32,360 nucleotides of DNA from an uncultured Candidatus Saccharibacteria bacterium (GCA_964529125.1 CAZGUN010000001.1:1-32360), one strand, 5' to 3'. Positions 20,069-32,315 are shown, numbered from the stretch's first letter. Program-made: numbers and translations. Notes: a model not told the origin generated them from the sequence alone.

Positions 20069-20225
20069 TTTTGGTGTGCACGCCTGCAGGTTTACACCCA
20101 GTTGCTCAGAATACTCCTATCAGGCAATAGATAAGTATGGGGTATTGAGAGGCTCTTTAATGGGAACCTGGCGCGTGTTAAGATGTAACCCGTTATCAAA
20201 AGGCGGAAAGGATCTTGTTAAATAA
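20010..20225 (+). CDS. yidD: Membrane protein insertion efficiency factor YidD
   Basis: LIKFYQKRLS...CRFTPSCSEYSYQAIDKYG...RVLRCNPLSKGGKD is the YidD signature. It overlaps rnpA by 59 nt. Confidence 0.8.
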   Translation: MKKLVLKLIKFYQKRLSSVNFGVHACRFTPSCSEYSYQAIDKYGVLRGSLMGTWRVLRCNPLSKGGKDLVK

Positions 20226-21025
20226 TGCTTGGCACAATCTGGAACACAATACTTGTTAACCCAATATTAAATCTATTCGTAGCTCTATACACATTTCTTG
20301 GTGGAAATATGGGTTTGGCGATAATTGTTCTGACAATCATTATTCGCGCACTTTTAATCCCCGTAATCCTTCCTTCAATGAAAACAATGCAAAAGCAAAG
20401 AGACTTACAGCCAGAAATCGAAAAGCTTAAAAGTAAGTATAAGCATGACAAGCAAAAGCTTGCGAAGGAGCAAATGGAACTTTTCAAAAGACACGGTTTA
20501 AACCCCGCGTCGGGCTGTCTGACCCAAATCTCTATGATTGTGGTTTTGATCGCTTTATATAATGTTATTAACCGCTTCTCAATAAATGTCGATATAAATG
20601 CCCTAAACAACCTACTTTACTTTCCGGCTTTAAGGTTTGTTGAAGGTGTCTCTATCAACACGACCTTTTGGTATATGAACCTGGCCAAAGCCGACCCTTA
20701 TTTTGTGTTACCAGTTTTGGCGGGTATTTTCCAGCTTTTCGCTTCAAAAATGATGTACCCATATGTTGAGGCAGGAGAAAAAGCCGCCAAAAGAACCCCT
20801 GACAAGAAAGATGACCTGGCTTATAATATGCAAGAGCAGATGCTGTACTTAATGCCCGTGATGACCGTATTCATTGGTGCAAGTTTGCCTTCGGGTGCAG
20901 CCTTGTACATTTTGGTAACAACAATATTTTCACTGGTTCAGCAATATTTTGTTTCAGGTTGGGGCGGATTAACGCCATGGCTTAGAAAGCTCAACATCAA
21001 TGTCGGAACAACTATTAAAAAATAA
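20225..21025 (+). CDS. yidC: Membrane protein insertase YidC/Oxa1 (short Gram-positive type)
   Basis: 266 aa. Supporting features are GLAIIVLTIIIRALLIPV, LQPEIEKLKSKYKHDKQKLAKEQMELFKRHGLNP and five TM segments. Confidence 0.85.
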   Translation: MLGTIWNTILVNPILNLFVALYTFLGGNMGLAIIVLTIIIRALLIPVILPSMKTMQKQRDLQPEIEKLKSKYKHDKQKLAKEQMELFKRHGLNPASGCLTQISMIVVLIALYNVINRFSINVDINALNNLLYFPALRFVEGVSINTTFWYMNLAKADPYFVLPVLAGIFQLFASKMMYPYVEAGEKAAKRTPDKKDDLAYNMQEQMLYLMPVMTVFIGASLPSGAALYILVTTIFSLVQQYFVSGWGGLTPWLRKLNINVGTTIKK

Positions 21026-22574: not shown

Positions 22575-24758
22575 TTAGTTTAACTGCGTTACCCGAGTTT
22601 TTCCATCTTCCCCTAAGCTTATTAACCCCTGATTCGAATCGTTTGTGGTGTTTGGTCCGATATCCTGCGCTGGAGTTGAGGTTGGGGGCTTGGGTTGCTG
22701 TACCTGCGGCCGGGCTTGTTGAGGTTGGGAAGCCGGAGTTTGTGGCGTTGGTGGTGGACTTACAGCCCTAACATTTGAAGTCAGCGGAGCTTTGGGAGGT
22801 GTTGGGGCTGTGACCACTGGTCTCGGAACCGTATTTTGCACACCGATTGGTTCATATTTACTAAAATCCACGTTTTGAATTGGTCGGTACGATTGTTTTG
22901 GCGCTTTTGGTTGCGGCATGGATTTTAAGATTTTTTCCTGAGCCTCCGCTCTCATTCTAAGAATTTCCTCCGGGTTTGTCGTTATTAATCTATGTTCCTC
23001 TTCTGACGCCACTACTTTTATAGCTACGTGGTTAGATCCAGCAAAGAACAAACCTTCCCCTTTATCTGCAGCCAAAAGCAATCTTTTCTCACCTTCGGAA
23101 AGATAAAATACTTCTGCAATTCTATCTATTGCCGCGGGGTGTTGTTTCAACAAAACTTGAATCGAAGAGTTACTCACAACTGCATGTCCGTACTCAGACT
23201 TTAAGAAGTCGTCAACATCCTGTGTAATTGTTGTCAATCCCAAGTAATATTTTCTCGCGCGTTTTGCGATACTGTACAAAAACTGTGCACTATCTTTGTT
23301 TTGCATTAAATACCAGGCTTCTTCCATTATCAAAAGTCTTTTTTTCAAATCTTTTCTAATTCGAGTCCAGATAAAATCTAAAATCATAAAAAAGGCAATC
23401 GGTCTTAGAGCGTCTTCAAAATTCCTTGTCGAAAAAACGGTCATTTTAGAACCAAAATTAACATTTGACTGCTGGTCGAATATTCCCGTCATGGAGCCTT
23501 TTATGAACTTTTCCAATCTATCGGCCATGCCGCGAGCCTCAGGTTCTGACGCGCCCAACAGCACTTTATATAAATCTTCCATAACCGGCGGCTCAATGCT
23601 TTGTTGGGTGTCTGGGTCAGGTGTAATCCCCTTTAGACGATAGGTTTCAATTAACGCTCTGTCCAGAATTGCCTCTTCAGTTGGGCTTAAAGCGCCAAGC
23701 ATCAATTTCAAAAGAGTGTGCAGAGAAAGAAGTTTTTGCCCAAGTTCGTTCTCGCCTTCAACCGCGACTCCAGATAAGTCAAACGGATTTATTTTCGAAG
23801 TAGAATTTGCCGAGAAATCTATGTAGTTTCCACCTAAAGCTTCACAAATTGGTCTGTACTCTTCTTCAGGATCAACAATTAAAATTTCCGTCCCAAAAAT
23901 TATTGATCTTATTACTTCAAGTTTTACCATGTAAGATTTTCCTGAACCTGATTTGGCAAAAACTACGGTATTGGCGTTTTCCAAAGAAAACCTGTCGAAA
24001 ATTACCAAAGATCCGTTGTGCTTATTGATTCCGTACATAATTCCCGTATCGGAAGTAAGATCAGACGAAGTGAATGGAAATGTTGTGGCCAAGCTTGTAG
24101 TGTCCATGTTTCTAGTTATCAAAAGCTTATCCACCGCTGTTGGAACTGATGATTGTAGGCCCTGCTCCATTTGCAAAGTTGCGTTCTTAGAAATTAAAAG
24201 CAAAGATCCAAGTGTACCTTCCAAATTTTTAGTTAGGTTGTCCAACTCTTCCAGACTTTCCGCGGGAATTGTTATGTAAAACGAAAATTGGAAGAATTTT
24301 TCTACACCTTTTACTAATTGTTCCTGCAGAGTGTTTGCGTCTTCTAAAGCAGCTACTACTACTGGATCGGCAATCTTTCCTCTTTCCGCATCAGATCTTA
24401 CAGTTGCTTCGAGCTCTGTAATTTTTCTTTTTAAATCATCCAAAATTCCCTGAGACTTAACCGGATAATAAAACATGGAAATATCCAAAGAGTGATCAAA
24501 GTTGATTATTGGAGAAAGCCAGTTTGCGCCAACGAACCTTGGGTAACCCGAAACAAATAGGGTTCTGTAATACGTGTTCCCAACCTTTACGTGATTAAAA
24601 TCTACCTCTATGGCGGAAGGCGCGATTATATCTTTGATATCAACCATACCTCTTCCAATGATTTCCCCCGCCGATTCCCCCTGCTGGGTTTGAATCTGCT
24701 CCTCGCCTGGCGCTTTCCTTGGACTTTTCTTTCCCAGTGTTAATTTTGGTAGTTTCAT
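22575..24758 (-). CDS. virB4: VirB4/TraE-family type IV secretion ATPase with a C-terminal Pro/Gln-rich extension
   Basis: 727 aa. The N-domain pattern is Gram-positive VirB4-like (YYRTLFVSGYPRFVGANWLSPII...DISMFYYP). Walker A AKSGSGKS is at 23934..23957 and a Walker B-like RLLIMEEAW at 23313..23339. GAGGA lies about 10 nt upstream of the ATG. Confidence 0.85.
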   Translation of the reverse strand: MKLPKLTLGKKSPRKAPGEEQIQTQQGESAGEIIGRGMVDIKDIIAPSAIEVDFNHVKVGNTYYRTLFVSGYPRFVGANWLSPIINFDHSLDISMFYYPVKSQGILDDLKRKITELEATVRSDAERGKIADPVVVAALEDANTLQEQLVKGVEKFFQFSFYITIPAESLEELDNLTKNLEGTLGSLLLISKNATLQMEQGLQSSVPTAVDKLLITRNMDTTSLATTFPFTSSDLTSDTGIMYGINKHNGSLVIFDRFSLENANTVVFAKSGSGKSYMVKLEVIRSIIFGTEILIVDPEEEYRPICEALGGNYIDFSANSTSKINPFDLSGVAVEGENELGQKLLSLHTLLKLMLGALSPTEEAILDRALIETYRLKGITPDPDTQQSIEPPVMEDLYKVLLGASEPEARGMADRLEKFIKGSMTGIFDQQSNVNFGSKMTVFSTRNFEDALRPIAFFMILDFIWTRIRKDLKKRLLIMEEAWYLMQNKDSAQFLYSIAKRARKYYLGLTTITQDVDDFLKSEYGHAVVSNSSIQVLLKQHPAAIDRIAEVFYLSEGEKRLLLAADKGEGLFFAGSNHVAIKVVASEEEHRLITTNPEEILRMRAEAQEKILKSMPQPKAPKQSYRPIQNVDFSKYEPIGVQNTVPRPVVTAPTPPKAPLTSNVRAVSPPPTPQTPASQPQQARPQVQQPKPPTSTPAQDIGPNTTNDSNQGLISLGEDGKTRVTQLN

Positions 24759-24764
24759 TTTTTA

Positions 24765-25469
24765 TTATTCCTCAAGAATCGCAGGCTCCACAAGCGCTGT
24801 TCTGTAATCATTTACGTTTGTTCTAATTCTTTGGTTTTGAGAGGTTCCCGGATTGTAAAATTCAAAGTAAAGTTCCACGATTTCCTGCGTGTTTAGCTGT
24901 CTAGCTTTTATTCCAAGTCTGTTAAATTCACCAATCAAGTGCTCCACTTTTGGCAGTAATTCTGGCCTGGCCCTTTCCAGTGCCTGCTCGACATTTACTT
25001 TCACCCTTTTTGCGTGAGTTCCGAAGAGTCTAGTAATCCAGTCAAATGGAGAAGAGCCCAGCTCCTGATACTTTGAGCTTCCAGATGGCACTACCACGTA
25101 AAACTTCTTATCCAAAACGTTATTAACTTTAATAATCTCCTGAATAAATTTTCTGTAAGCCTGCGCCTGTCTTTTTAAAAGAGGATCCGCTAAAGCTTGC
25201 TCTGTTTGGACAACTTTAGCTAGATAGTTTGAAATATCGACTCTTTTGGATCGTATAACAATTTGCATAGGAAACGTTATTGAGTTTAATAGCATGGAAA
25301 AAGCGGCAATGAGCGCGTCTTGTTCAATTTCAGAAAGCAGTGCAAAATTTACAGCAGTAGTTGTTATAACGACCGCCACCCCGCCATTTTTAAGTATCAC
25401 TAAATTGTCTCTTATATCCTCTATGTCTAAATGCTCTTGGGTTGTTGCTTTAATTTCTGGGACAGTCAT
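24765..25469 (-). CDS. Hypothetical soluble protein resembling a stand-alone VirB4/TraC N-terminal domain (no NTPase motifs)
   Basis: 234 aa. TQEHLDIEDIRDNLVILKNGGVAVVITTTAVNFALLSEIEQDALIAAFSMLLNSITFPMQIVI follows the pattern I recall for N-termini of Gram-positive conjugative VirB4 ATPases. It has no Walker A and no TM helix. AGGAAAGG lies upstream of the start. Confidence 0.45.
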   Translation of the reverse strand: MTVPEIKATTQEHLDIEDIRDNLVILKNGGVAVVITTTAVNFALLSEIEQDALIAAFSMLLNSITFPMQIVIRSKRVDISNYLAKVVQTEQALADPLLKRQAQAYRKFIQEIIKVNNVLDKKFYVVVPSGSSKYQELGSSPFDWITRLFGTHAKRVKVNVEQALERARPELLPKVEHLIGEFNRLGIKARQLNTQEIVELYFEFYNPGTSQNQRIRTNVNDYRTALVEPAILEE

Positions 25470-25472
25470 GTT

Positions 25473-26792
25473 CTATGCCTTTCCTACGAACACCAAAGGA
25501 GAAATAATCTGGCCTTTAGCTTCAACGTCAATTATATCAAAGGAATAGCCACTTTCGTTATTAACATCAACCACAACTTTGTAGTGACCGCTTGGCAGAG
25601 GGTTAGTTATAGAAAACTGTCCCAAAGCATTAGTTTTTATAGCCCGTACCGGATCGTTGTGTGCATTTTTAATAATTAGAAGAAGATTAGACAAACTTCT
25701 ATTCCGTGGCCCTCTTACCACACCCGTTACTACATTTGGAATGTTGGTTGGTTGTGGTTCGACCATCTCCGTTTCCTTGACCAATACTTTATTGGTTTCC
25801 GGTTCCTGCACTTTCTGTACCTCTTGTACTTTTGCTTTTGGTAACTCCATCCCCTCGGTTTGACCAAGCTGCTTTAGGAATTGTTTTAATTGCTTGGCCT
25901 TTTCTTCCGCATCTCTACTTACTTCCACGTCCTCAACAGTTTTGAGTACCCTTTCCCCTCTTATTGGAAGTACAATATTACCCTCACTTGAAAGAAGATT
26001 TGTGAATTTTCTTCCGGAGTGTCTATCTGGCGTTATTGGAGATAAAGGTGTCGCAGCACTTTGGGAAGGAGGGATTTTAAATGTCTGTTGTCTTTTTGGT
26101 TTTTTTCTCTGCTGAGGCTTTTGTGGCGACTTTTGTTGACTCTCCCGAGCCCTTTGTTCTCTTTGATCTTTGTCCCCAGCGCTTTCAAGAGCCCCAATCT
26201 CCTTGCCGGTTCCTGGACTCTCCACACTTTCAAAATCTGTTTCCACCAACGGCTCCTCAAGAGCTACAGAAGTTTGCATAGGTTCGGTTGACATAAAAGC
26301 AGCATGGATTTTTTCTATGTACGCTTGCTCAGGAATATCCAAAGGATCAACAGGCTGAGTTTCTTGTTGATATTGCAGAAACTGTTCCAGCTTTCTTCGA
26401 CTTGTTGTTGGAGCTAAAGTTATAAGTTCCTGTTTTACTAAAGCTAGGTTTTCGTGAAGAAATACTGATGGGGGTGTTGCTTCTTTTCGCCAAATCTTTT
26501 GATTCTCCTCGTATATGGCTCTGAAGAAATTAACAATCCATTCGTCCAAACCTCTATCTTCAACAGGGACAAATGCAAAGCCCAGACCAAGAAGAATACT
26601 TCCCACTATTGTTGGCCACTTTAGAACCACGGGAACCCTCAGTGAATATGTGGCATAAGCGATTGCTGCAAATATCATAAGATAGAAAAACTGGCGCATT
26701 GTTAGGTCGCCAATGAGCTTGAACTCAACGTCCATTATGTTTTGCGGAACAGCGTGCTGTTTGTTTGATTGTAACGAATCGGTTATGGGCAT
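25473..26792 (-). CDS. PrgI/VirB3-like membrane protein fused to a charged low-complexity linker and a C-terminal CarboxypepD_reg-like beta-sandwich domain
   Basis: 439 aa. The N-terminus AVPQNIMDVEFKLIGDLTMRQFFYLM plus a two-TM hairpin fits the PrgI (VirB3-like) pattern. The middle is rich in K/Q/E/P (QREQRARESQQKSPQKPQQRKKPKRQQ). The C-terminus VVTGVVRGPRN...AIKTNALGQFSITNPLPSGHYKVVV (about 25476..25739) fits a carboxypeptidase-regulatory-like fold. Confidence 0.6.
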   Translation of the reverse strand: MPITDSLQSNKQHAVPQNIMDVEFKLIGDLTMRQFFYLMIFAAIAYATYSLRVPVVLKWPTIVGSILLGLGFAFVPVEDRGLDEWIVNFFRAIYEENQKIWRKEATPPSVFLHENLALVKQELITLAPTTSRRKLEQFLQYQQETQPVDPLDIPEQAYIEKIHAAFMSTEPMQTSVALEEPLVETDFESVESPGTGKEIGALESAGDKDQREQRARESQQKSPQKPQQRKKPKRQQTFKIPPSQSAATPLSPITPDRHSGRKFTNLLSSEGNIVLPIRGERVLKTVEDVEVSRDAEEKAKQLKQFLKQLGQTEGMELPKAKVQEVQKVQEPETNKVLVKETEMVEPQPTNIPNVVTGVVRGPRNRSLSNLLLIIKNAHNDPVRAIKTNALGQFSITNPLPSGHYKVVVDVNNESGYSFDIIDVEAKGQIISPLVFVGKA

Positions 26793-26829: not shown

Positions 26830-28329
26830 CTACTTCTTGAATTTCTTTTCTCCAAGAACCGCATCCTCAAGCTTTTTGGGTAACCCGGCAGCCCATACAA
26901 AGATTGCCATCACAATTATTGGGGTTGTTAGAGATAATATTGCGTTGACAGCGCTACCGCCAATAATACCGACTGGGTTTAATGGGGTGCTGGTGGATGC
27001 GATAGTGTAGCCAGTAGGGCCACAAAAACCCTCCTCAAAACTTGACCAAGCAAATGCCAGCCCAAAGGCCAACCCAAAAGTTACGATGGGTATTGTTAAA
27101 ACATTAACTGCAAGATGCTTAAACCAAGTAGCTATCGAGCTTTCATTACCCGGTATTGCCCCCCACGCAAACTGTATCGGGGCAGCGATAACCAAAATAA
27201 GAATTTTTGCGTAAGCCACTAACCCCTTTATGATCAAAATCAACTGCAGTATTATGTATACAATAAAAGCTAGTACCCCAAGGAGCAATCCTACAAGTCC
27301 AATCCCACTTGCCGATACTGCGGAGAGAAGGCCGTTTATCATTATGATTCCCTGAAGAAGAGGGCTTAGCCCAGCCTGTACCGCCCGATAAGGTTCCCAT
27401 GCCACAGAAGTAAGGGGTTTTATCAAACCTACGGCAAGAGCCCCTATGGCGTAACTAAATGCGATTAATGCCAAGGAAACTATAATTCTGGGAATTGCAT
27501 ATTGAATGGTGACAGAGGTTCTGGGGTCAATCTGCTTTCTCATCATTATCATCATGCCAACAATAAGCATAAAAACGGCCATCAGACCAAAGGCAAGATT
27601 TCTGGTTAGTTTCCAAAGTCTTAAAACAAAAGGGAATCCGACAAAACTATCGCCGCTAGTATCAATTTCTTGGGCGAAGGCTGTGTCTTTAAGAAACATT
27701 GTGTTAGAAGCAACATCCCTCGCATAAAAAGCCAAACTCACAGGCACAGGTTCGTGGTATAAGGCGTAGGTTGCACCCGTAGCTATTCCTGCCAGACTTC
27801 CCGATGAGGGAGACCTTCCAAGGGGTCCAAGAGGTTCAAGACCGGCCGCTGCCGCCGCTGGATTTGCTGTAAGGGTGGAGCACACGGAGCTATCAAAATC
27901 GGCAAGAAGGTCGTTTACCCCGGGGGGCATTGCACATATCTGCGGCCCACCCAGCTGACCATCTAGTGCAAGTAATGCGCAGGCATTAAGTTCTTCTTGG
28001 CTAAGTCCTACTGTTGCTCCGGTTGGTATATCCAAGAGAAGAGATGTGAACATATCTTGAACCGTTCTTCTTATATCTATGTCAGGTAAAATTCGAGCCC
28101 CAGCCTCCCAGACGCATCCGATAACACCTCCTACGAGTCCGATGGTCCACTCATATAAATCGTCTGGTGAGTCGGTAAAACAAGGAATTGGATCATCTCC
28201 AGGAAGCGGCGCGCCTTGCGCGTACGCTTTATTAAAAGGAGTTACCAAAAGTAGTGAGATGATTAATAAGACAAGTGCAGTTTTAACTCTATTTCCTCTT
28301 GCGAACATATCTAAGTTAAATTTTTTCAT
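26830..28329 (-). CDS. VirB6/TrbL-like polytopic T4SS membrane protein with a Cys-containing N-terminal ectodomain
   Basis: 499 aa. The signal peptide ends in ...NKAYA|QG. An extracytoplasmic region of about 200 aa carries several Cys, and at least 6 TM helices follow. The call rests on architecture and on position next to VirB3- and VirB4-like genes. Confidence 0.55.
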   Translation of the reverse strand: MKKFNLDMFARGNRVKTALVLLIISLLLVTPFNKAYAQGAPLPGDDPIPCFTDSPDDLYEWTIGLVGGVIGCVWEAGARILPDIDIRRTVQDMFTSLLLDIPTGATVGLSQEELNACALLALDGQLGGPQICAMPPGVNDLLADFDSSVCSTLTANPAAAAAGLEPLGPLGRSPSSGSLAGIATGATYALYHEPVPVSLAFYARDVASNTMFLKDTAFAQEIDTSGDSFVGFPFVLRLWKLTRNLAFGLMAVFMLIVGMMIMMRKQIDPRTSVTIQYAIPRIIVSLALIAFSYAIGALAVGLIKPLTSVAWEPYRAVQAGLSPLLQGIIMINGLLSAVSASGIGLVGLLLGVLAFIVYIILQLILIIKGLVAYAKILILVIAAPIQFAWGAIPGNESSIATWFKHLAVNVLTIPIVTFGLAFGLAFAWSSFEEGFCGPTGYTIASTSTPLNPVGIIGGSAVNAILSLTTPIIVMAIFVWAAGLPKKLEDAVLGEKKFKK

Positions 28330-28376: not shown

Positions 28377-30410
28377 ATGGCTTCAGGCAACCCACTTTAT
28401 CCAGGATATTATCCAGGTACACCTTATATTAGAGAACCCTCAGGTGGTGGGTCGAAAAGTAAAAGACCGCCCGAGTATCAACCGAGCACAGCCGACACTT
28501 TTTTTGAAGCTCTTTCAAGTACACCACCAACCTCCATACCATTCTGGCTTTGGCAGCAAGAGGTTCAGCAGGCTGAAGATAGCTTCCTACATTTTGCTGG
28601 AGCTCTAAGCGCGCCAGAGTTAGAAAAAGGGTATGGCCGGTATGCTGGGATAGAAACAGAGATTGAAGCTGGGCAGCAGCAGTTTGGTGCGGAAGAAGCA
28701 CAGGAGCTTCCCGGCGCAGCCGGCATTATGGTAAATCTAAACCCTGTCGATTGGATTAAAGATCCAGTCAAACAGGTCAAAAAGCACTTTGAGAGTTCTT
28801 ATAGAGCCATAGCCGATCTGCAGGATTTTACGACCGATACAAAAGTTCTTATGTGGGCGGGTGAGAAGGATAAGAAGGGTAATGTGACGAGGCCTGGATA
28901 TTTTACTGATGAGAGATCCCCCTTTTATTTAAGGAATGCCGACGGACTTGAAGCTTTGTATAAAGATGTCGAAGTTAGAGTCCCACTTTACATGAGAAAT
29001 AGCGCCTCTGCGATTTTTAGAAACAAAGCCTTTGCGGAGGCGAACGTATCAATACTTAACGCTTTGTCAATAGAGTTATATGCAAAAAGAACCTCATTTA
29101 CTGGAGAGGCTCGTAGGGAGGTTGATCTTTTCGAGGCAGGAGCGGCCGTTGCCGACTCCATGGCTGATCTTGGTGGAGCTTTGTACAAAACAAATGAGTC
29201 TTTTGGCGGGGTTTTTATTAACAAGAGAATATTTGATAAGGATGGAAGAGATAAAACTGCCGATGAGGTTAATAAGTTGGGTGGAGAGATTGCCAGAGCC
29301 AAAGCGGCAATCGGAAAGTTTGAAGGTTTGGGCGTGGAAGTGCCTAAGGAGCTTGGGAAATACAAGGACTTTATACAGACGCTGGATGAGGAGTTTAGTA
29401 GGCATGTACGGGTTGAAAGAGTAGGTGGTGTTTCTAAATGGGTTTTGAATGAGGGGTCAGAAACAGCGCTTAACAAAGTAGTAGACTTCCGCCGGACGCA
29501 ATTATTTAGAGCGACCGCCAATGCCGGTATTGGGGGTACCTACATAAATAACCTTACTAATAGAGAGGTGAGAGATCGAAAATCTAACTTAAACAAAGCA
29601 ATAAATGCTAAGAGAGCAGATGGTTCATACATAGTTAGCGAAGCGGGCCGAAAAGTTGGGTTAGTCTCCGCGATGGTGAGGAGGGACTACGAATGGATGA
29701 CGGCGATGGACTTAGCAAGCGCTTTTGAAGAAGGTAAGCTTTTAAGGCAGTACTTATGGGCCAATATCATTTACCCCCGCATTAAAAGATCTACCCCAAG
29801 CTATTACATAGACAGGTTGAAGGACAAAGTTGTTGCCCACAAATTTACTAAAGACACGTACAAACTTATTAAGGGCAACCGTGTATTTGTTGAGGGGGTT
29901 AGTTTTAAGGGAGTGTTTAAAGGGTATGCAAGGAAGTTAGAGTGGCTACAGAAATCAACTTTAAACAAAGCATACGGATGGGCTTTTAGGCCCGCTGAAA
30001 TGATAGGACGTAGAATTTGGGACGCGGTATTAATAGCGCTTGAAGGTGCATTTGGGGGAGCAACCGGTGGGGTAGGCGCAGTAGTTTTCTGGGTTGTAAG
30101 GCAGGCTTTTGCTTATATTGTTACTAAAGCCACCAAATACTTGAGCAACACTTTCAAAGCCCTTAAGAAAATGGATGCTGGGTATTTTTTTGAAGGCACG
30201 CTTGTTTCACTAGCTAGAATTGTAATGGTAGCAGGAATTGTCTTTGCTATACCGGCGTTTATTATAATAATGCTTTTTGGAATGGTTCTAACGGTGATAT
30301 CCCCTGTGGATTCAACTAAAACTGGAAGTTACAGTGTTGGGCAGGGTACGTTGTCGCCGCAAAACACAACTACTTCTGATCAGACATCCCAACCAATATC
30401 CCCTCCCTAA
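28377..30410 (+). CDS. Orphan 677-aa protein: Pro/Tyr/Gly-rich N-terminus, large soluble region and C-terminal TM helices
   Basis: This uninterrupted 2-kb ORF is transcribed divergently from the VirB6-like gene. I recognised no NTPase or other motif. Hydrophobic helices lie near the C-terminus (IWDAVLIALEGAFGGATGGVGAVVFWVV; IVMVAGIVFAIPAFIIIMLFGMVLTVI), followed by a Ser/Thr/Gln/Pro tail. Confidence 0.6.
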   Translation: MASGNPLYPGYYPGTPYIREPSGGGSKSKRPPEYQPSTADTFFEALSSTPPTSIPFWLWQQEVQQAEDSFLHFAGALSAPELEKGYGRYAGIETEIEAGQQQFGAEEAQELPGAAGIMVNLNPVDWIKDPVKQVKKHFESSYRAIADLQDFTTDTKVLMWAGEKDKKGNVTRPGYFTDERSPFYLRNADGLEALYKDVEVRVPLYMRNSASAIFRNKAFAEANVSILNALSIELYAKRTSFTGEARREVDLFEAGAAVADSMADLGGALYKTNESFGGVFINKRIFDKDGRDKTADEVNKLGGEIARAKAAIGKFEGLGVEVPKELGKYKDFIQTLDEEFSRHVRVERVGGVSKWVLNEGSETALNKVVDFRRTQLFRATANAGIGGTYINNLTNREVRDRKSNLNKAINAKRADGSYIVSEAGRKVGLVSAMVRRDYEWMTAMDLASAFEEGKLLRQYLWANIIYPRIKRSTPSYYIDRLKDKVVAHKFTKDTYKLIKGNRVFVEGVSFKGVFKGYARKLEWLQKSTLNKAYGWAFRPAEMIGRRIWDAVLIALEGAFGGATGGVGAVVFWVVRQAFAYIVTKATKYLSNTFKALKKMDAGYFFEGTLVSLARIVMVAGIVFAIPAFIIIMLFGMVLTVISPVDSTKTGSYSVGQGTLSPQNTTTSDQTSQPISPP

Positions 30411-30868
30411 TTTCCAGGATAGTCAACACAACCTATGCCCCCTTGATTACAGTCGTTTATCATAGTAACAAACTGGGTTACGGCGTTTCGGAGAGCTGTT
30501 GCAGGATCTAGCAAAGCTATGTTAAGTCCAAAAGCCCCAATCAGGATTCTGATAAATACAAAAACACCAATTACTATAATAAACCCCACTACCGCTAAGG
30601 TGAGTGTATCTTTTGCACCCTGAAGTCCCTTTGGATCTCCTTGAGACAGTGAGTATTTGTAACCGGAAACAAAAAGCATTATCAAAAAAACAGCCCCAGA
30701 CATATAAACAAGTAGGTTCAATCCCCTAAAGATAAAATCAAATACTGGTCCCAGGTCGTTTGGGACATCGCTTTGGGCGTATGCGATTCTGTGCAGCTTA
30801 GCAAGTACTGCAGTAGTAAATAAAAATAAGGGTTTTAATTTATTTGTTTTAATGTTTAAGTTTTTCAT
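30407..30868 (-). CDS. TrbC/VirB2-like T4SS pilin paralog 1 (C-terminal extension with a Cys pair)
   Basis: 153 aa. The signal peptide ends in IAYA|QSD. The two-helix hairpin core carries the shared loop motif SGYKYSLSQGDPKGLQGAKDTL. The C-terminus has CNQGGIGC and ends in ...DYPGN. Confidence 0.6.
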   Translation of the reverse strand: MKNLNIKTNKLKPLFLFTTAVLAKLHRIAYAQSDVPNDLGPVFDFIFRGLNLLVYMSGAVFLIMLFVSGYKYSLSQGDPKGLQGAKDTLTLAVVGFIIVIGVFVFIRILIGAFGLNIALLDPATALRNAVTQFVTMINDCNQGGIGCVDYPGN

Positions 30869-30876
30869 ATTTTATA

Positions 30877-31338
30877 CTAAAAAGGCACCGGATTTGGAGG
30901 TTGCCCCGGCGGAATGTGCGCTGGCGGAGGGCCCAAAAAGATACTATCAGGATTTTCAACACCAAGCACATTAATGATCACACCCATTATGGCAAAAGCC
31001 CCAACAGTTACTAATAAAGCTACTATGCTGTACGTAAGTGCTTGCTTTGCACCCATCGCAGCCTTCACATCCCCCCGACTTGACATGTATTTTATTCCAG
31101 AAAGGATTGTAGCTATAAGAGATAGAGCTATACCAATTCCCAAAGCTATGTTAATTACTATTCCAGCCAAATCCTCAACAGTTTTAATTTCGCCTGTGTT
31201 TCCTATAGAGTTTTCAGAAATGCTTTTCAGTAGATCGTTCCACTCTTGCGCCCTTGCCATAGCGGTATTTGCTACAAGAAGAAACCCTAGACAACCTAAC
31301 AATATGAGTACTTTTGAATATTTTGGGAGTCTTGTCAT
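30877..31338 (-). CDS. TrbC/VirB2-like T4SS pilin paralog 2
   Basis: I place the start at ATG 31338 (MTRLPKYSKVLILLGCLGFLLVANTAMA|RAQ, a canonical signal peptide). The track ORF begins at TTG 31359. The core loop is SGIKYMSSRGDVKAAMGAKQAL. The Pro-rich C-terminus ends in ...PNPVPF. Confidence 0.6.
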   Translation of the reverse strand: MTRLPKYSKVLILLGCLGFLLVANTAMARAQEWNDLLKSISENSIGNTGEIKTVEDLAGIVINIALGIGIALSLIATILSGIKYMSSRGDVKAAMGAKQALTYSIVALLVTVGAFAIMGVIINVLGVENPDSIFLGPPPAHIPPGQPPNPVPF

Positions 31339-31365
31339 TACGGAAATAAGTATAAACAATAACTT

Positions 31366-31400
31366 AAAGAAAACAAAATGCCCCGCGCTTGGCGAGGCAT
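31366..31400 (-). terminator. Rho-independent terminator downstream of pilin paralog 3
   Basis: The minus-strand RNA reads AUGCCUCGC-CAAGC-GCGGGGCAU, a 9-bp GC-rich stem (one G-U pair) with a 5-nt loop. UUUUGUUUUCUUU follows. It lies in the 63-nt gap between paralogs 3 and 2. Confidence 0.6.
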
Positions 31401-31422
31401 CTTGTTAACTAAGCAGAAAGTA

Positions 31423-31764
31423 CTAAAAGCCCGGAGGCGTTACACCCGGCACAGCTGTACTTGTAGGAGCACCAATAATGTTTAGCAAGACCGTTCTAAT
31501 GGTGAAAGCTCCAATAACCACGATAAATCCAATTACTGCGTTGGTTAAAGAAGTTCTAGCTTCTTGAGCTGCTTTCTGATCACCTTTGGAGGTAATGTAT
31601 TGAATACCGCCTAAGATCAAAAAGACAATCGTTAAAGCAACACCTATTCCGAGAACAATGTTTATAGCCAAACCCAAAATTTCAGGTAATGTGTCAACAG
31701 ACAAGTTTATTATCGTCGGGGTCGTAGGAATGCTTTGTGCGTATACGTGTTGTAATAATGGCAT
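31423..31764 (-). CDS. TrbC/VirB2-like T4SS pilin paralog 3 (no hydrophobic signal-peptide core)
   Basis: 113 aa. The strong Shine-Dalgarno AAGGAGGTG lies about 8 nt upstream, and an in-frame TAA 12 nt upstream rules out a longer N-terminus. The core loop is GGIQYITSKGDQKAAQEARTSL. The protein ends in ...TPPGF. Confidence 0.65.
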   Translation of the reverse strand: MPLLQHVYAQSIPTTPTIINLSVDTLPEILGLAINIVLGIGVALTIVFLILGGIQYITSKGDQKAAQEARTSLTNAVIGFIVVIGAFTIRTVLLNIIGAPTSTAVPGVTPPGF

Positions 31765-31789
31765 CAGTATTCTTTACACCTCCTTTAAA

Positions 31790-32278
31790 TTAAAAACCAG
31801 GATCGCTTCCTGTAATTAAACTACCAATTAATATTCGCAGGATACCTATAGATAATAGAACGAATAACATGCCCATTATAGCAGATGTGAGCTGTTCTTT
31901 AGCCTCCATTGTCTTTTTTGGATCTCCCTGGCTAGTCATAAACATATAACCGCCTACAACTATGAGGATAAACCCAATGATAATTGCGAGGGGTAGGGTT
32001 ATGTTATACACAATTTTGATAAGACCGCTAACGTCAAACCCCTTTCCAATGATAGGCCCGGGAGGTGTGCCTGTGCATTGGCAACTAAAGTTTCCCTGGT
32101 CATTGGGCACACACTGCCCGCCTGTGTAACCGCCTGCAATACATGCTGAAGCGCACGCATGGGCTTCGCAGGCTGCGTATACTTTTGCGTCTGTTGTTAA
32201 AAGAAATGCTGTGAGTACAACACAGACAACGGAGGCAATCTTTAAAATTTTTCTTTGATATAATGCGTTCATGCCCAC
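31790..32278 (-). CDS. TrbC/VirB2-like T4SS pilin paralog 4 with an N-terminal six-cysteine (defensin-like) module
   Basis: 162 aa, starting at GTG 32278 or ATG 32272. The signal peptide ends in ...DAKVYA|A. The module ACEAHACASACIAGGYTGGQCVPNDQGNFSCQC follows, then a TGTPPGP linker. The core loop is GGYMFMTSQGDPKKTMEAKEQL. The protein ends in ...SDPGF. Confidence 0.65.
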   Translation of the reverse strand: MGMNALYQRKILKIASVVCVVLTAFLLTTDAKVYAACEAHACASACIAGGYTGGQCVPNDQGNFSCQCTGTPPGPIIGKGFDVSGLIKIVYNITLPLAIIIGFILIVVGGYMFMTSQGDPKKTMEAKEQLTSAIMGMLFVLLSIGILRILIGSLITGSDPGF

Positions 32279-32286
32279 TGTCAGGA

Positions 32287-32315
32287 ATTATCGAGGTTAT
32301 GATACTACGAGTCAA
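32287..32315 (-). promoter_or_regulatory. Putative promoter of the pilin operon (TTGACT-17 nt-GATAAT)
   Basis: On the minus strand TTGACT lies at 32315..32310 and GATAAT at 32292..32287. The -10 ends 8 nt before GTG 32278 and 14 nt before ATG 32272. Confidence 0.45.

Follow-up and report, generated by a model that had tools for sequence, protein, structure and literature searches.

Four divergent pilin-family genes beside the type IV secretion locus of a WWE3 bacterium, one of them a candidate major subunit

We analysed an array of four small tandem genes, P4, P3, P2 and P1 in the order of their predicted transcription, that lies at one end of a 32,360-nucleotide stretch of DNA (GCA_964529125.1 CAZGUN010000001.1:1-32360; here called the window) and encodes proteins resembling the pilins of type IV secretion systems (T4SSs). 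The window is one entire contig of a 615-kb metagenome-assembled genome that is ~90% complete, and the names on close homologues assign the host to candidate division WWE3 (Patescibacteria). The coordinates of all features are collected in Table 1. A first-pass annotation of the window had placed four pilin-like genes here, sharing a core of two transmembrane (TM) helices joined by a loop (TM1-loop-TM2), and both the open reading frames (ORFs), all on the minus strand, and the protein alignment agree with it. For P2, ATG 31338 (MTRLPKYSK..., 153 amino acids [aa], with a cleaner predicted signal peptide) is a more plausible start than TTG 31359. P1 starts 8 nucleotides (nt) past the stop of P2, and 82 nt lie between P4 and the contig end on its upstream side. 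A custom hidden Markov model (HMM) found no further pilin genes in the 615-kb genome at E ≤ 1. These four genes probably make up the whole array, because a divergent gene sits beyond the P4 ortholog in a genome of the same genus.

Table 1. Positions of the pilin genes, their expression signals and outer modules, and the neighbouring genes in the window
Feature	Position	Strand	Description
P4	31790-32278	minus	162 aa; first gene of the array; start GTG 32278 or ATG 32272; ends ...DPGF
P3	31423-31764	minus	113 aa; short pilin; ends ...PPGF
P2	30877-31359	minus	160 aa from TTG; Pro-rich tail; ends ...PVPF
P1	30407-30868	minus	153 aa; last gene; hairpin and 38-aa C-terminal tail with Cys140/Cys147; ends ...YPGN
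Promoter-like site	32287-32315	minus	TTGACT-17-GATAAT, upstream of P4; 10/12 matches in a consensus scan; pattern match only
Shine-Dalgarno site	31777-31786	minus	AAAGGAGGTG; 12 nt before the P3 ATG
Terminator-like hairpin	31372-31406	minus	directly 3' of P3; 15-pair stem, then U-tract; -24.5 kcal/mol
N-terminus of P3	31738-31764	minus	9-aa leader MPLLQHVYA, followed by Q, then S; no signal-peptide core
Cys-rich head of P4	32075-32173	minus	six-Cys pattern C-x4-C-x3-C-x9-C-x9-C-x-C
VirB4 ATPase, CD1110-type	22575-24758	minus	NCBIfam conju_CD1110 383.8 bits; Pfam P-loop_TraG 94.8 bits
TrsD-like gene	24765-25469	minus	234 aa; weak TrsD match
PrgI/VirB3-like gene	25473-26792	minus	Pfam PrgI 34.6 bits
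Polytopic membrane protein gene	26830-28329	minus	499 aa; VirB6 position; role inferred from position
Orphan gene	28377-30410	plus	677 aa; convergent on the pilin array; separates T4SS core genes from pilins
yidC	20225-21025	plus	60KD_IMP 159.5 bits; flanked by rnpA and a KH/R3H-domain gene; 1.5 kb away from the T4SS cluster

P2, P3 and P4 are 29-35% identical to P1 in the protein alignment. The invariant residues of the common core include P1 positions G69, S75, G77, D78, K80, A85, L89 and T90 (G, S-x-G-D-x-K, A and L-T), and the loop motif that the first-pass annotation had described is found there as proposed. Among 131 pilin cores from relatives, the loop Gly is present in 98% and the loop Asp in 89%. 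Outside the core, the N- and C-terminal extensions are mutually unrelated, as the same annotation had noted: P1 carries a Cys-pair tail, P2 a Pro-rich tail and P4 a six-Cys head, and P3 is short. When the P3 ortholog of the same-genus genome was compared by BLAST, P1, P2 and P4 gave E values of 5e-10, 2e-18 and 4e-8, respectively; the likeness among the four is therefore not due to chance.

Membership of the T4SS pilin family, for which an HMM search had been suggested as a check, was borne out by a score of 43.1 bits (43.5 in the genome scan) for P3 against Pfam PF18895 T4SS_pilin, whose gathering cut-off is 26.6 bits. P1, P2 and P4 themselves stay under this value, whereas orthologs of theirs reach it. 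Of the 10 P2 orthologs scanned, 5 reached the PF18895 cut-off, and P4 and seven of its eight homologues are flagged as PF18895 in the database annotation. More than 120 homologues of P3 were found at 54-82% identity. The cut-off of PF04956 TrbC/VirB2 (27.9 bits) was not reached, with 18.7 bits for P2 (E 0.002), 14.6 for P4 and 22.7 for the best ortholog. Likewise, the scores against NCBIfam NF045849, the Mbov_0395 pilin-like conjugal transfer protein of Mycoplasma integrative and conjugative elements (ICEs), were 21.5, 25.1, 32.0 and 28.9 bits for P1 to P4 and missed the cut-off of 40 bits; these matches span profile positions 7-80 of 80. We conclude that P1 to P4 are almost certainly T4SS subunits of the VirB2-like pilin family PF18895.

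In the same-genus genome, the four genes recur in unchanged order, with protein identities of 40% (P4), 69% (P3), 54% (P2) and 45% (P1), a divergence at which synonymous sites are saturated. In ~20 further genomes of the family, a P4-type gene is followed by one or two P3-type genes, a P2-type and a P1-type gene. In a tree of 91 hairpin cores, based on 77 columns and hence of limited resolution, and built from relatives that are not independent samples, the Shimodaira-Hasegawa approximate likelihood-ratio test (SH-aLRT) supported the P4 type with 99% (one side of the branch), a true-P3 clade (n=26) with 96% and the P1 type with 84%. The genes at the P2 position formed a coherent but poorly resolved group. 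Branches were shortest in the P3 type, and recent lineage-specific tandem duplication was confined to it. By gene order and tree, P1 to P4 represent four old orthogroups that are not redundant with one another, rather than recent copies. Pseudogene-like decay of the paralogs in relatives, which the first-pass annotation had named, together with expression of a single paralog, as a sign against its finding, was limited to a few stop-bearing copies and never extended to a whole orthogroup, so that what is seen in these sequences is occasional decay of extra copies. One of these rare copies with in-frame stops, in genome G124 (C3:32938-33153), has one TGA and one TAG. In several genera (relatives L014, L022, L031 and L034), the P3-type gene alone is present in two near-identical tandem copies.

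Within the array, a Shine-Dalgarno (SD) site precedes P3 only; none was found at P1, P2 or P4. The same distribution was seen in the arrays of the family, where an SD of at least 6 nt was present at 23/26 P3-type genes, 0/22 P4, 0/23 P2 and 3/20 P1. Hairpins of -12 kcal/mol or stronger were located in the first 80 nt downstream of 20/26 P3-type genes, as compared with 0/22 P4, 3/23 P2 and 6/20 P1, and they follow 17 of 20 last P3 copies in relatives. Their position is kept and their sequence differs between genomes. The median spacers are 24 nt from P4 to P3, 63 nt from P3 to P2 and -10.5 nt (an overlap) from P2 to P1. Because the SD and the downstream hairpin mark the P3 type, which is also the slowest to evolve, we take P3 to be probably the major (bulk) subunit and P1, P2 and P4 low-abundance accessory subunits. 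The duplications restricted to the P3 type fit a dosage demand on that subunit. The major/minor-subunit reading offered by the first-pass annotation agrees with these conserved signals. In the promoter-like site ahead of P4, the -10 element stops 8 nt short of the GTG, which would leave a very short leader or none. With the -10 element so close to the GTG and no SD, the P4 mRNA may be leaderless or nearly so.

The T4SS core genes begin beside dnaN, close to dnaA, and lie within 8 kb on the same strand as the pilins; their order is identical in the same-genus genome. The VirB4 and TrsD-like proteins also match the Mycoplasma ICE VirB4 model. The 499-aa polytopic protein had no family match in Pfam or NCBIfam, and no VirB5-type tip protein was found in the locus. 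The nearby yidC gene makes YidC a candidate insertase for the P3 hairpin, which has no signal peptide.

P1, P2 and P4 appear to carry a signal peptide. The short leader of P3 leaves no such core, and an in-frame stop four codons upstream of its start means that no longer form is possible. Of 108 P3-type proteins, 104 begin with such a leader, which ends in x-x-A, has a median length of 11 aa, frequently contains no K/R and leaves no room for a signal peptide. The P3 leader resembles the c-region of a signal peptide that has lost its n- and h-regions. A count of signal peptides per orthogroup by regular expression took TM1 for a signal peptide and, being unreliable, was not used. The AlphaFold2 (AF2) model of P3 is a hairpin of helices 26-58 and 63-97 with a predicted local distance difference test (pLDDT) score of 78 and disordered tails.

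In the AF2 model of P4, the hairpin (helices 81-113 and 118-154) is preceded by a head of one helix (37-46) and two strands with pLDDT values of 72-76. Six Cys residues in CxxxC, GxC and CxC arrangements, with a helix and two or three strands, define the cysteine-stabilised alpha/beta (CS-alpha/beta) fold. The Cys pattern of the head is kept in 5/9 homologues. Its Foldseek top matches were all CS-alpha/beta proteins (scorpion toxins and plant defensins), at E values of only 0.4-2, and its Pfam matches, SLR1-BP with 18.9 bits and Defensin-like with 17.5 bits, were both below cut-off. The model and these matches are suggestive of a CS-alpha/beta-like (defensin) fold. Across genera, P4-type heads range from none to >400 aa. 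In most P1-type proteins, the hairpin is flanked by two Cys on each side; P1 of the window has only the tail pair C140/C147. Disulfides could tie together the two outward-facing ends of P1-type proteins. In several P1-type orthologs (L012, L030, L031, L035, L038, L046 and others), the last Cys often lies 0-2 residues from the end (...PGC, ...RCD).

Taken together, these features suggest the following working model. A single promoter upstream of P4 would drive the operon. P3 would be translated from its strong SD, and the message would end at, or be stabilised by, the hairpin that follows, so that P3 would be made in excess as the major subunit. P4, P2 and P1 have no SD, and the genes for P2 and P1 lie close together in the window and overlap in most relatives; all three would supply accessory subunits of low abundance. 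Each protein would enter the membrane as a hairpin whose two ends face outward and whose basic S-x-G-D-x-K loop stays in the cytoplasm. The route would be Sec and signal peptidase for P1, P2 and P4 and, for P3 with its 9-aa leader only, probably YidC. The VirB4-driven machine would then assemble the subunits into a pilus or stalk that exposes the variable modules: on P4 the CS-alpha/beta-like head, on P1 the Cys-loop tail and on P2 the Pro-rich tail. The Pro-x-Phe ends of the P2, P3 and P4 types would probably serve as a packing or contact element and not as a processing signal. We hold the balance of evidence to be modestly in favour of this major/accessory model as a whole. Whether P1 to P4 build an actual extracellular filament is, in our judgement, evenly poised.

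Several observations weigh against this model. P4 precedes P3 on the same predicted transcript; the hairpin alone therefore cannot raise P3 over P4, and an excess of P3 depends on the strength of its SD. The hairpin could also be a full terminator, with P2 and P1 expressed from a separate promoter. With 23.9 (P4), 22.7 (P1) and 13.9 bits (P2), three of the four proteins fall below the PF18895 cut-off. Foldseek found no significant match to the P3 model, a helical hairpin being too generic a shape; the conjugative pilus of Aeropyrum (8dfu) ranked 12th with an E value of 3.9. A sequence search of the PDB with the P3 profile returned a chance hit only (E 2.1). A T4SS pilus has never been seen on any Patescibacterium, and reviews mention no more than a 'potential' pilus (PMC12857230). 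Finally, transposon-sequencing (Tn-seq) essentiality within an operon, as reported for pilin genes of another Patescibacterium, can reflect polar effects.

The first-pass annotation had also offered exchangeable subunits as a reading. The paralogs would then be variants of one subunit, used for antigenic or host-range variation, of which the cell picks one per host. VirB2 paralogs in Bartonella and Anaplasma have been proposed to vary in this way, and the same idea is raised for Patescibacteria in PMC12102498. It would suit outer N- and C-terminal parts that are wholly different around a kept core, and P4-type heads that vary so widely in length between genera. However, each type occurs once per genome and in fixed order in ~20 genomes, the types form separate old clades, expression signals differ systematically by type, and recent duplication affects the P3 type only. 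In the rows for SEML1_0017, SEML1_0018 and SEML1_0019 of the Tn-seq table of Candidatus Southlakia epibionticum ML1 (PMC10633639), moreover, three of its six PF18895 pilin genes are each scored as essential. We therefore consider exchangeable variants improbable. A different rival holds that there is no extracellular filament and that the proteins, comparable to the Mycoplasma ICE protein, form parts of a membrane-embedded or wall-spanning channel or stalk in a monoderm T4SS. All four match NF045849 over nearly the whole profile (21-32 bits), the neighbouring VirB4 belongs to the Gram-positive CD1110 type, pili have not been observed, and monoderm T4SSs are generally described without them (PMC12102498, PMC12857230). 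The NF045849 scores stay under the 40-bit cut-off, however, and a high-output subunit with accessory exposed modules suits a polymer better than a channel part of fixed stoichiometry. This rival, which we regard as a serious but rather unlikely possibility, can be combined with the major/minor reading, from which it departs solely in the structure built.

The C-terminal ends bear on another alternative. The first-pass annotation had read them as ...DPGF (P4), ...PPGF (P3), ...PVPF (P2) and ...YPGN (P1), which is correct, and had suggested that the shared PGF is a processing or anchoring signal. Together with the short leader of P3, the end would in that case direct C-terminal trimming and cyclisation, as in RP4 TrbC and R27 TrhA, which are trimmed and cyclised by signal-peptidase homologues, or it would anchor the protein. 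A Pro-x(0-1)-Phe terminus was indeed enriched, being present in 26/137 pilin-like ORFs of WWE3 relatives (19%) as compared with 5/489 long ORFs of this genome (1%). Moreover, in 108 non-redundant P3-type tails a variable linker leads to a last residue that is Phe in 58% and one of F/L/I/Y/W in 89%, and the AF2 models place both termini on one side of the hairpin. Some other WWE3 families end in ...P-x-F-x-G-P. By type, the Pro-x(0-1)-Phe end was found in 7/22 P4, 7/26 P3, 12/23 P2 and 0/20 P1 proteins. From these counts, the motif is a real feature of the P2, P3 and P4 types in the WWE3 lineage, and the 'YPGN' of P1 is a coincidental resemblance, because no P1-type protein has the motif. However, all four orthologs of the same-genus genome lack it (their ends are GL, GI, VN and YK), and in other Patescibacteria classes it occurs at background (2/126 pilins, with Phe as the last residue in 7%). 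Because the motif is absent from that relative and from the P1 type and is at background in other classes, a general processing signal is unlikely.

No S26 domain, the domain of TraF/TrhF-like signal-peptidase homologues, was detected in any locus gene scanned, and the two S26 peptidase genes of the genome sit on other contigs; a TraF-like cyclase encoded at the locus was accordingly rejected. The cleaved tails of TrbC and TrhA resemble neither each other nor this end, and the folded outer modules of P4 and P1 are ill-suited to cyclisation. In PGF-CTERM and sortase-type signals, the motif stands ahead of a TM helix and a basic tail. Here PGF and PVPF are the last residues, beyond the second TM helix, and this order rules out a sorting signal of either type. 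Taken together, trimming, cyclisation or anchoring directed by this end appears very improbable, and our guess is that Pro-x-Phe is a packing or contact element in WWE3. We also think it quite improbable that all elements of the most elaborate picture hold at once, namely a heteropolymeric T4SS pilus on a monoderm cell with accessory host-contact modules, the defensin head of P4 at the tip binding the host envelope, and Pro-x-Phe used for docking or processing.

Arrays of this kind have been described. From 383 Patescibacteria assemblies, PMC12102498 lists 441 arrays, each with 2-11 genes for VirB2-like pilins (PF18895/PF04956); the mean identity is 25%, and the T4SS is often near dnaA/dnaN. 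In Southlakia, the pilin series SEML1_0014-0019 of the T4SS cluster was found to be essential (PMC10633639), and PMC12857230 summarises six pilins that are conserved in structure but divergent in sequence. The present array shares with these the tandem PF18895 genes of low mutual identity and the position beside VirB4, TrsD, PrgI and VirB6-like genes near dnaA/dnaN, with no relaxase or coupling protein seen within the window; it differs in belonging to a WWE3 genome and not to a Saccharibacterium. PF18895 matches were present in 38/41 close relatives and in 113/121 genomes sampled across the phylum (E ≤ 1e-8), mostly several per genome. The statement of the first-pass annotation that most T4SS loci have one VirB2 thus holds for classical systems but not for this phylum, where arrays are the norm (PMC12102498). 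Its statement that Agrobacterium VirB2 is cyclised is now disputed by three cryo-electron microscopy structures (PMC12037004). The array is an ordinary example of an already published feature, to which a few comparative details are added. The order of four orthogroups, the SD and hairpin on one type and the Pro-x-Phe end of WWE3 are not described in those parts of PMC12102498 and PMC10633639 to which selected terms lead.

With the TrbC/VirB2 pilins (RP4 TrbC, R27 TrhA and F TraA), the proteins have in common the small two-helix hairpin with a basic loop, weak PF04956 matches of P2 and P4 and the apparent signal peptides of P1, P2 and P4. They differ in that all window scores are <27.9 bits, there are four subunits and not one, P3 has no signal peptide, and neither a VirB5-type tip protein nor a TraF-like cyclase is encoded in this locus. 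Moreover, those conjugative and effector T4SSs are diderm, whereas the host here is taken as monoderm, following the description of the phylum in the cited papers. The Mbov_0395 protein, to whose 80-position profile the four proteins align almost entirely, belongs to a mobile element of Mycoplasma; the locus studied here, by contrast, is part of the chromosome and adjacent to the origin. In the papA and fimA pilus operons, the major-pilin gene is followed by a stem-loop, with accessory subunit genes beyond. The array resembles them in having one subunit gene with strong translation signals and a downstream hairpin; the protein families and assembly machines are unrelated, and the effect of the hairpin is here predicted.

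The T4SS with its pilin series is essential for the epibiotic life of the sole Patescibacterium tested so far (PMC10633639, PMC11665869). Four fixed subunit types, one marked for high output, and variable outer modules on the other three offer testable handles to groups able to cultivate such organisms: they single out one gene for tagging as the bulk subunit and others for tests of a tip or adaptor role. The matches to NF045849 bear on whether Patescibacteria pilins were inherited with a monoderm (MPF-FATA-like) machine or co-opted from diderms, a choice that PMC12102498 does not decide. Although below threshold, they hint at a possible arrival of the pilins together with the monoderm-type machine rather than by borrowing from diderm systems.

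The 677-aa orphan gene between the T4SS core genes and the array had no Pfam or NCBIfam match. Its product has C-terminal TM segments, and the gene overlaps the stop of P1 by 4 nt. At the corresponding position, the same-genus genome has a gene of 1047 aa.

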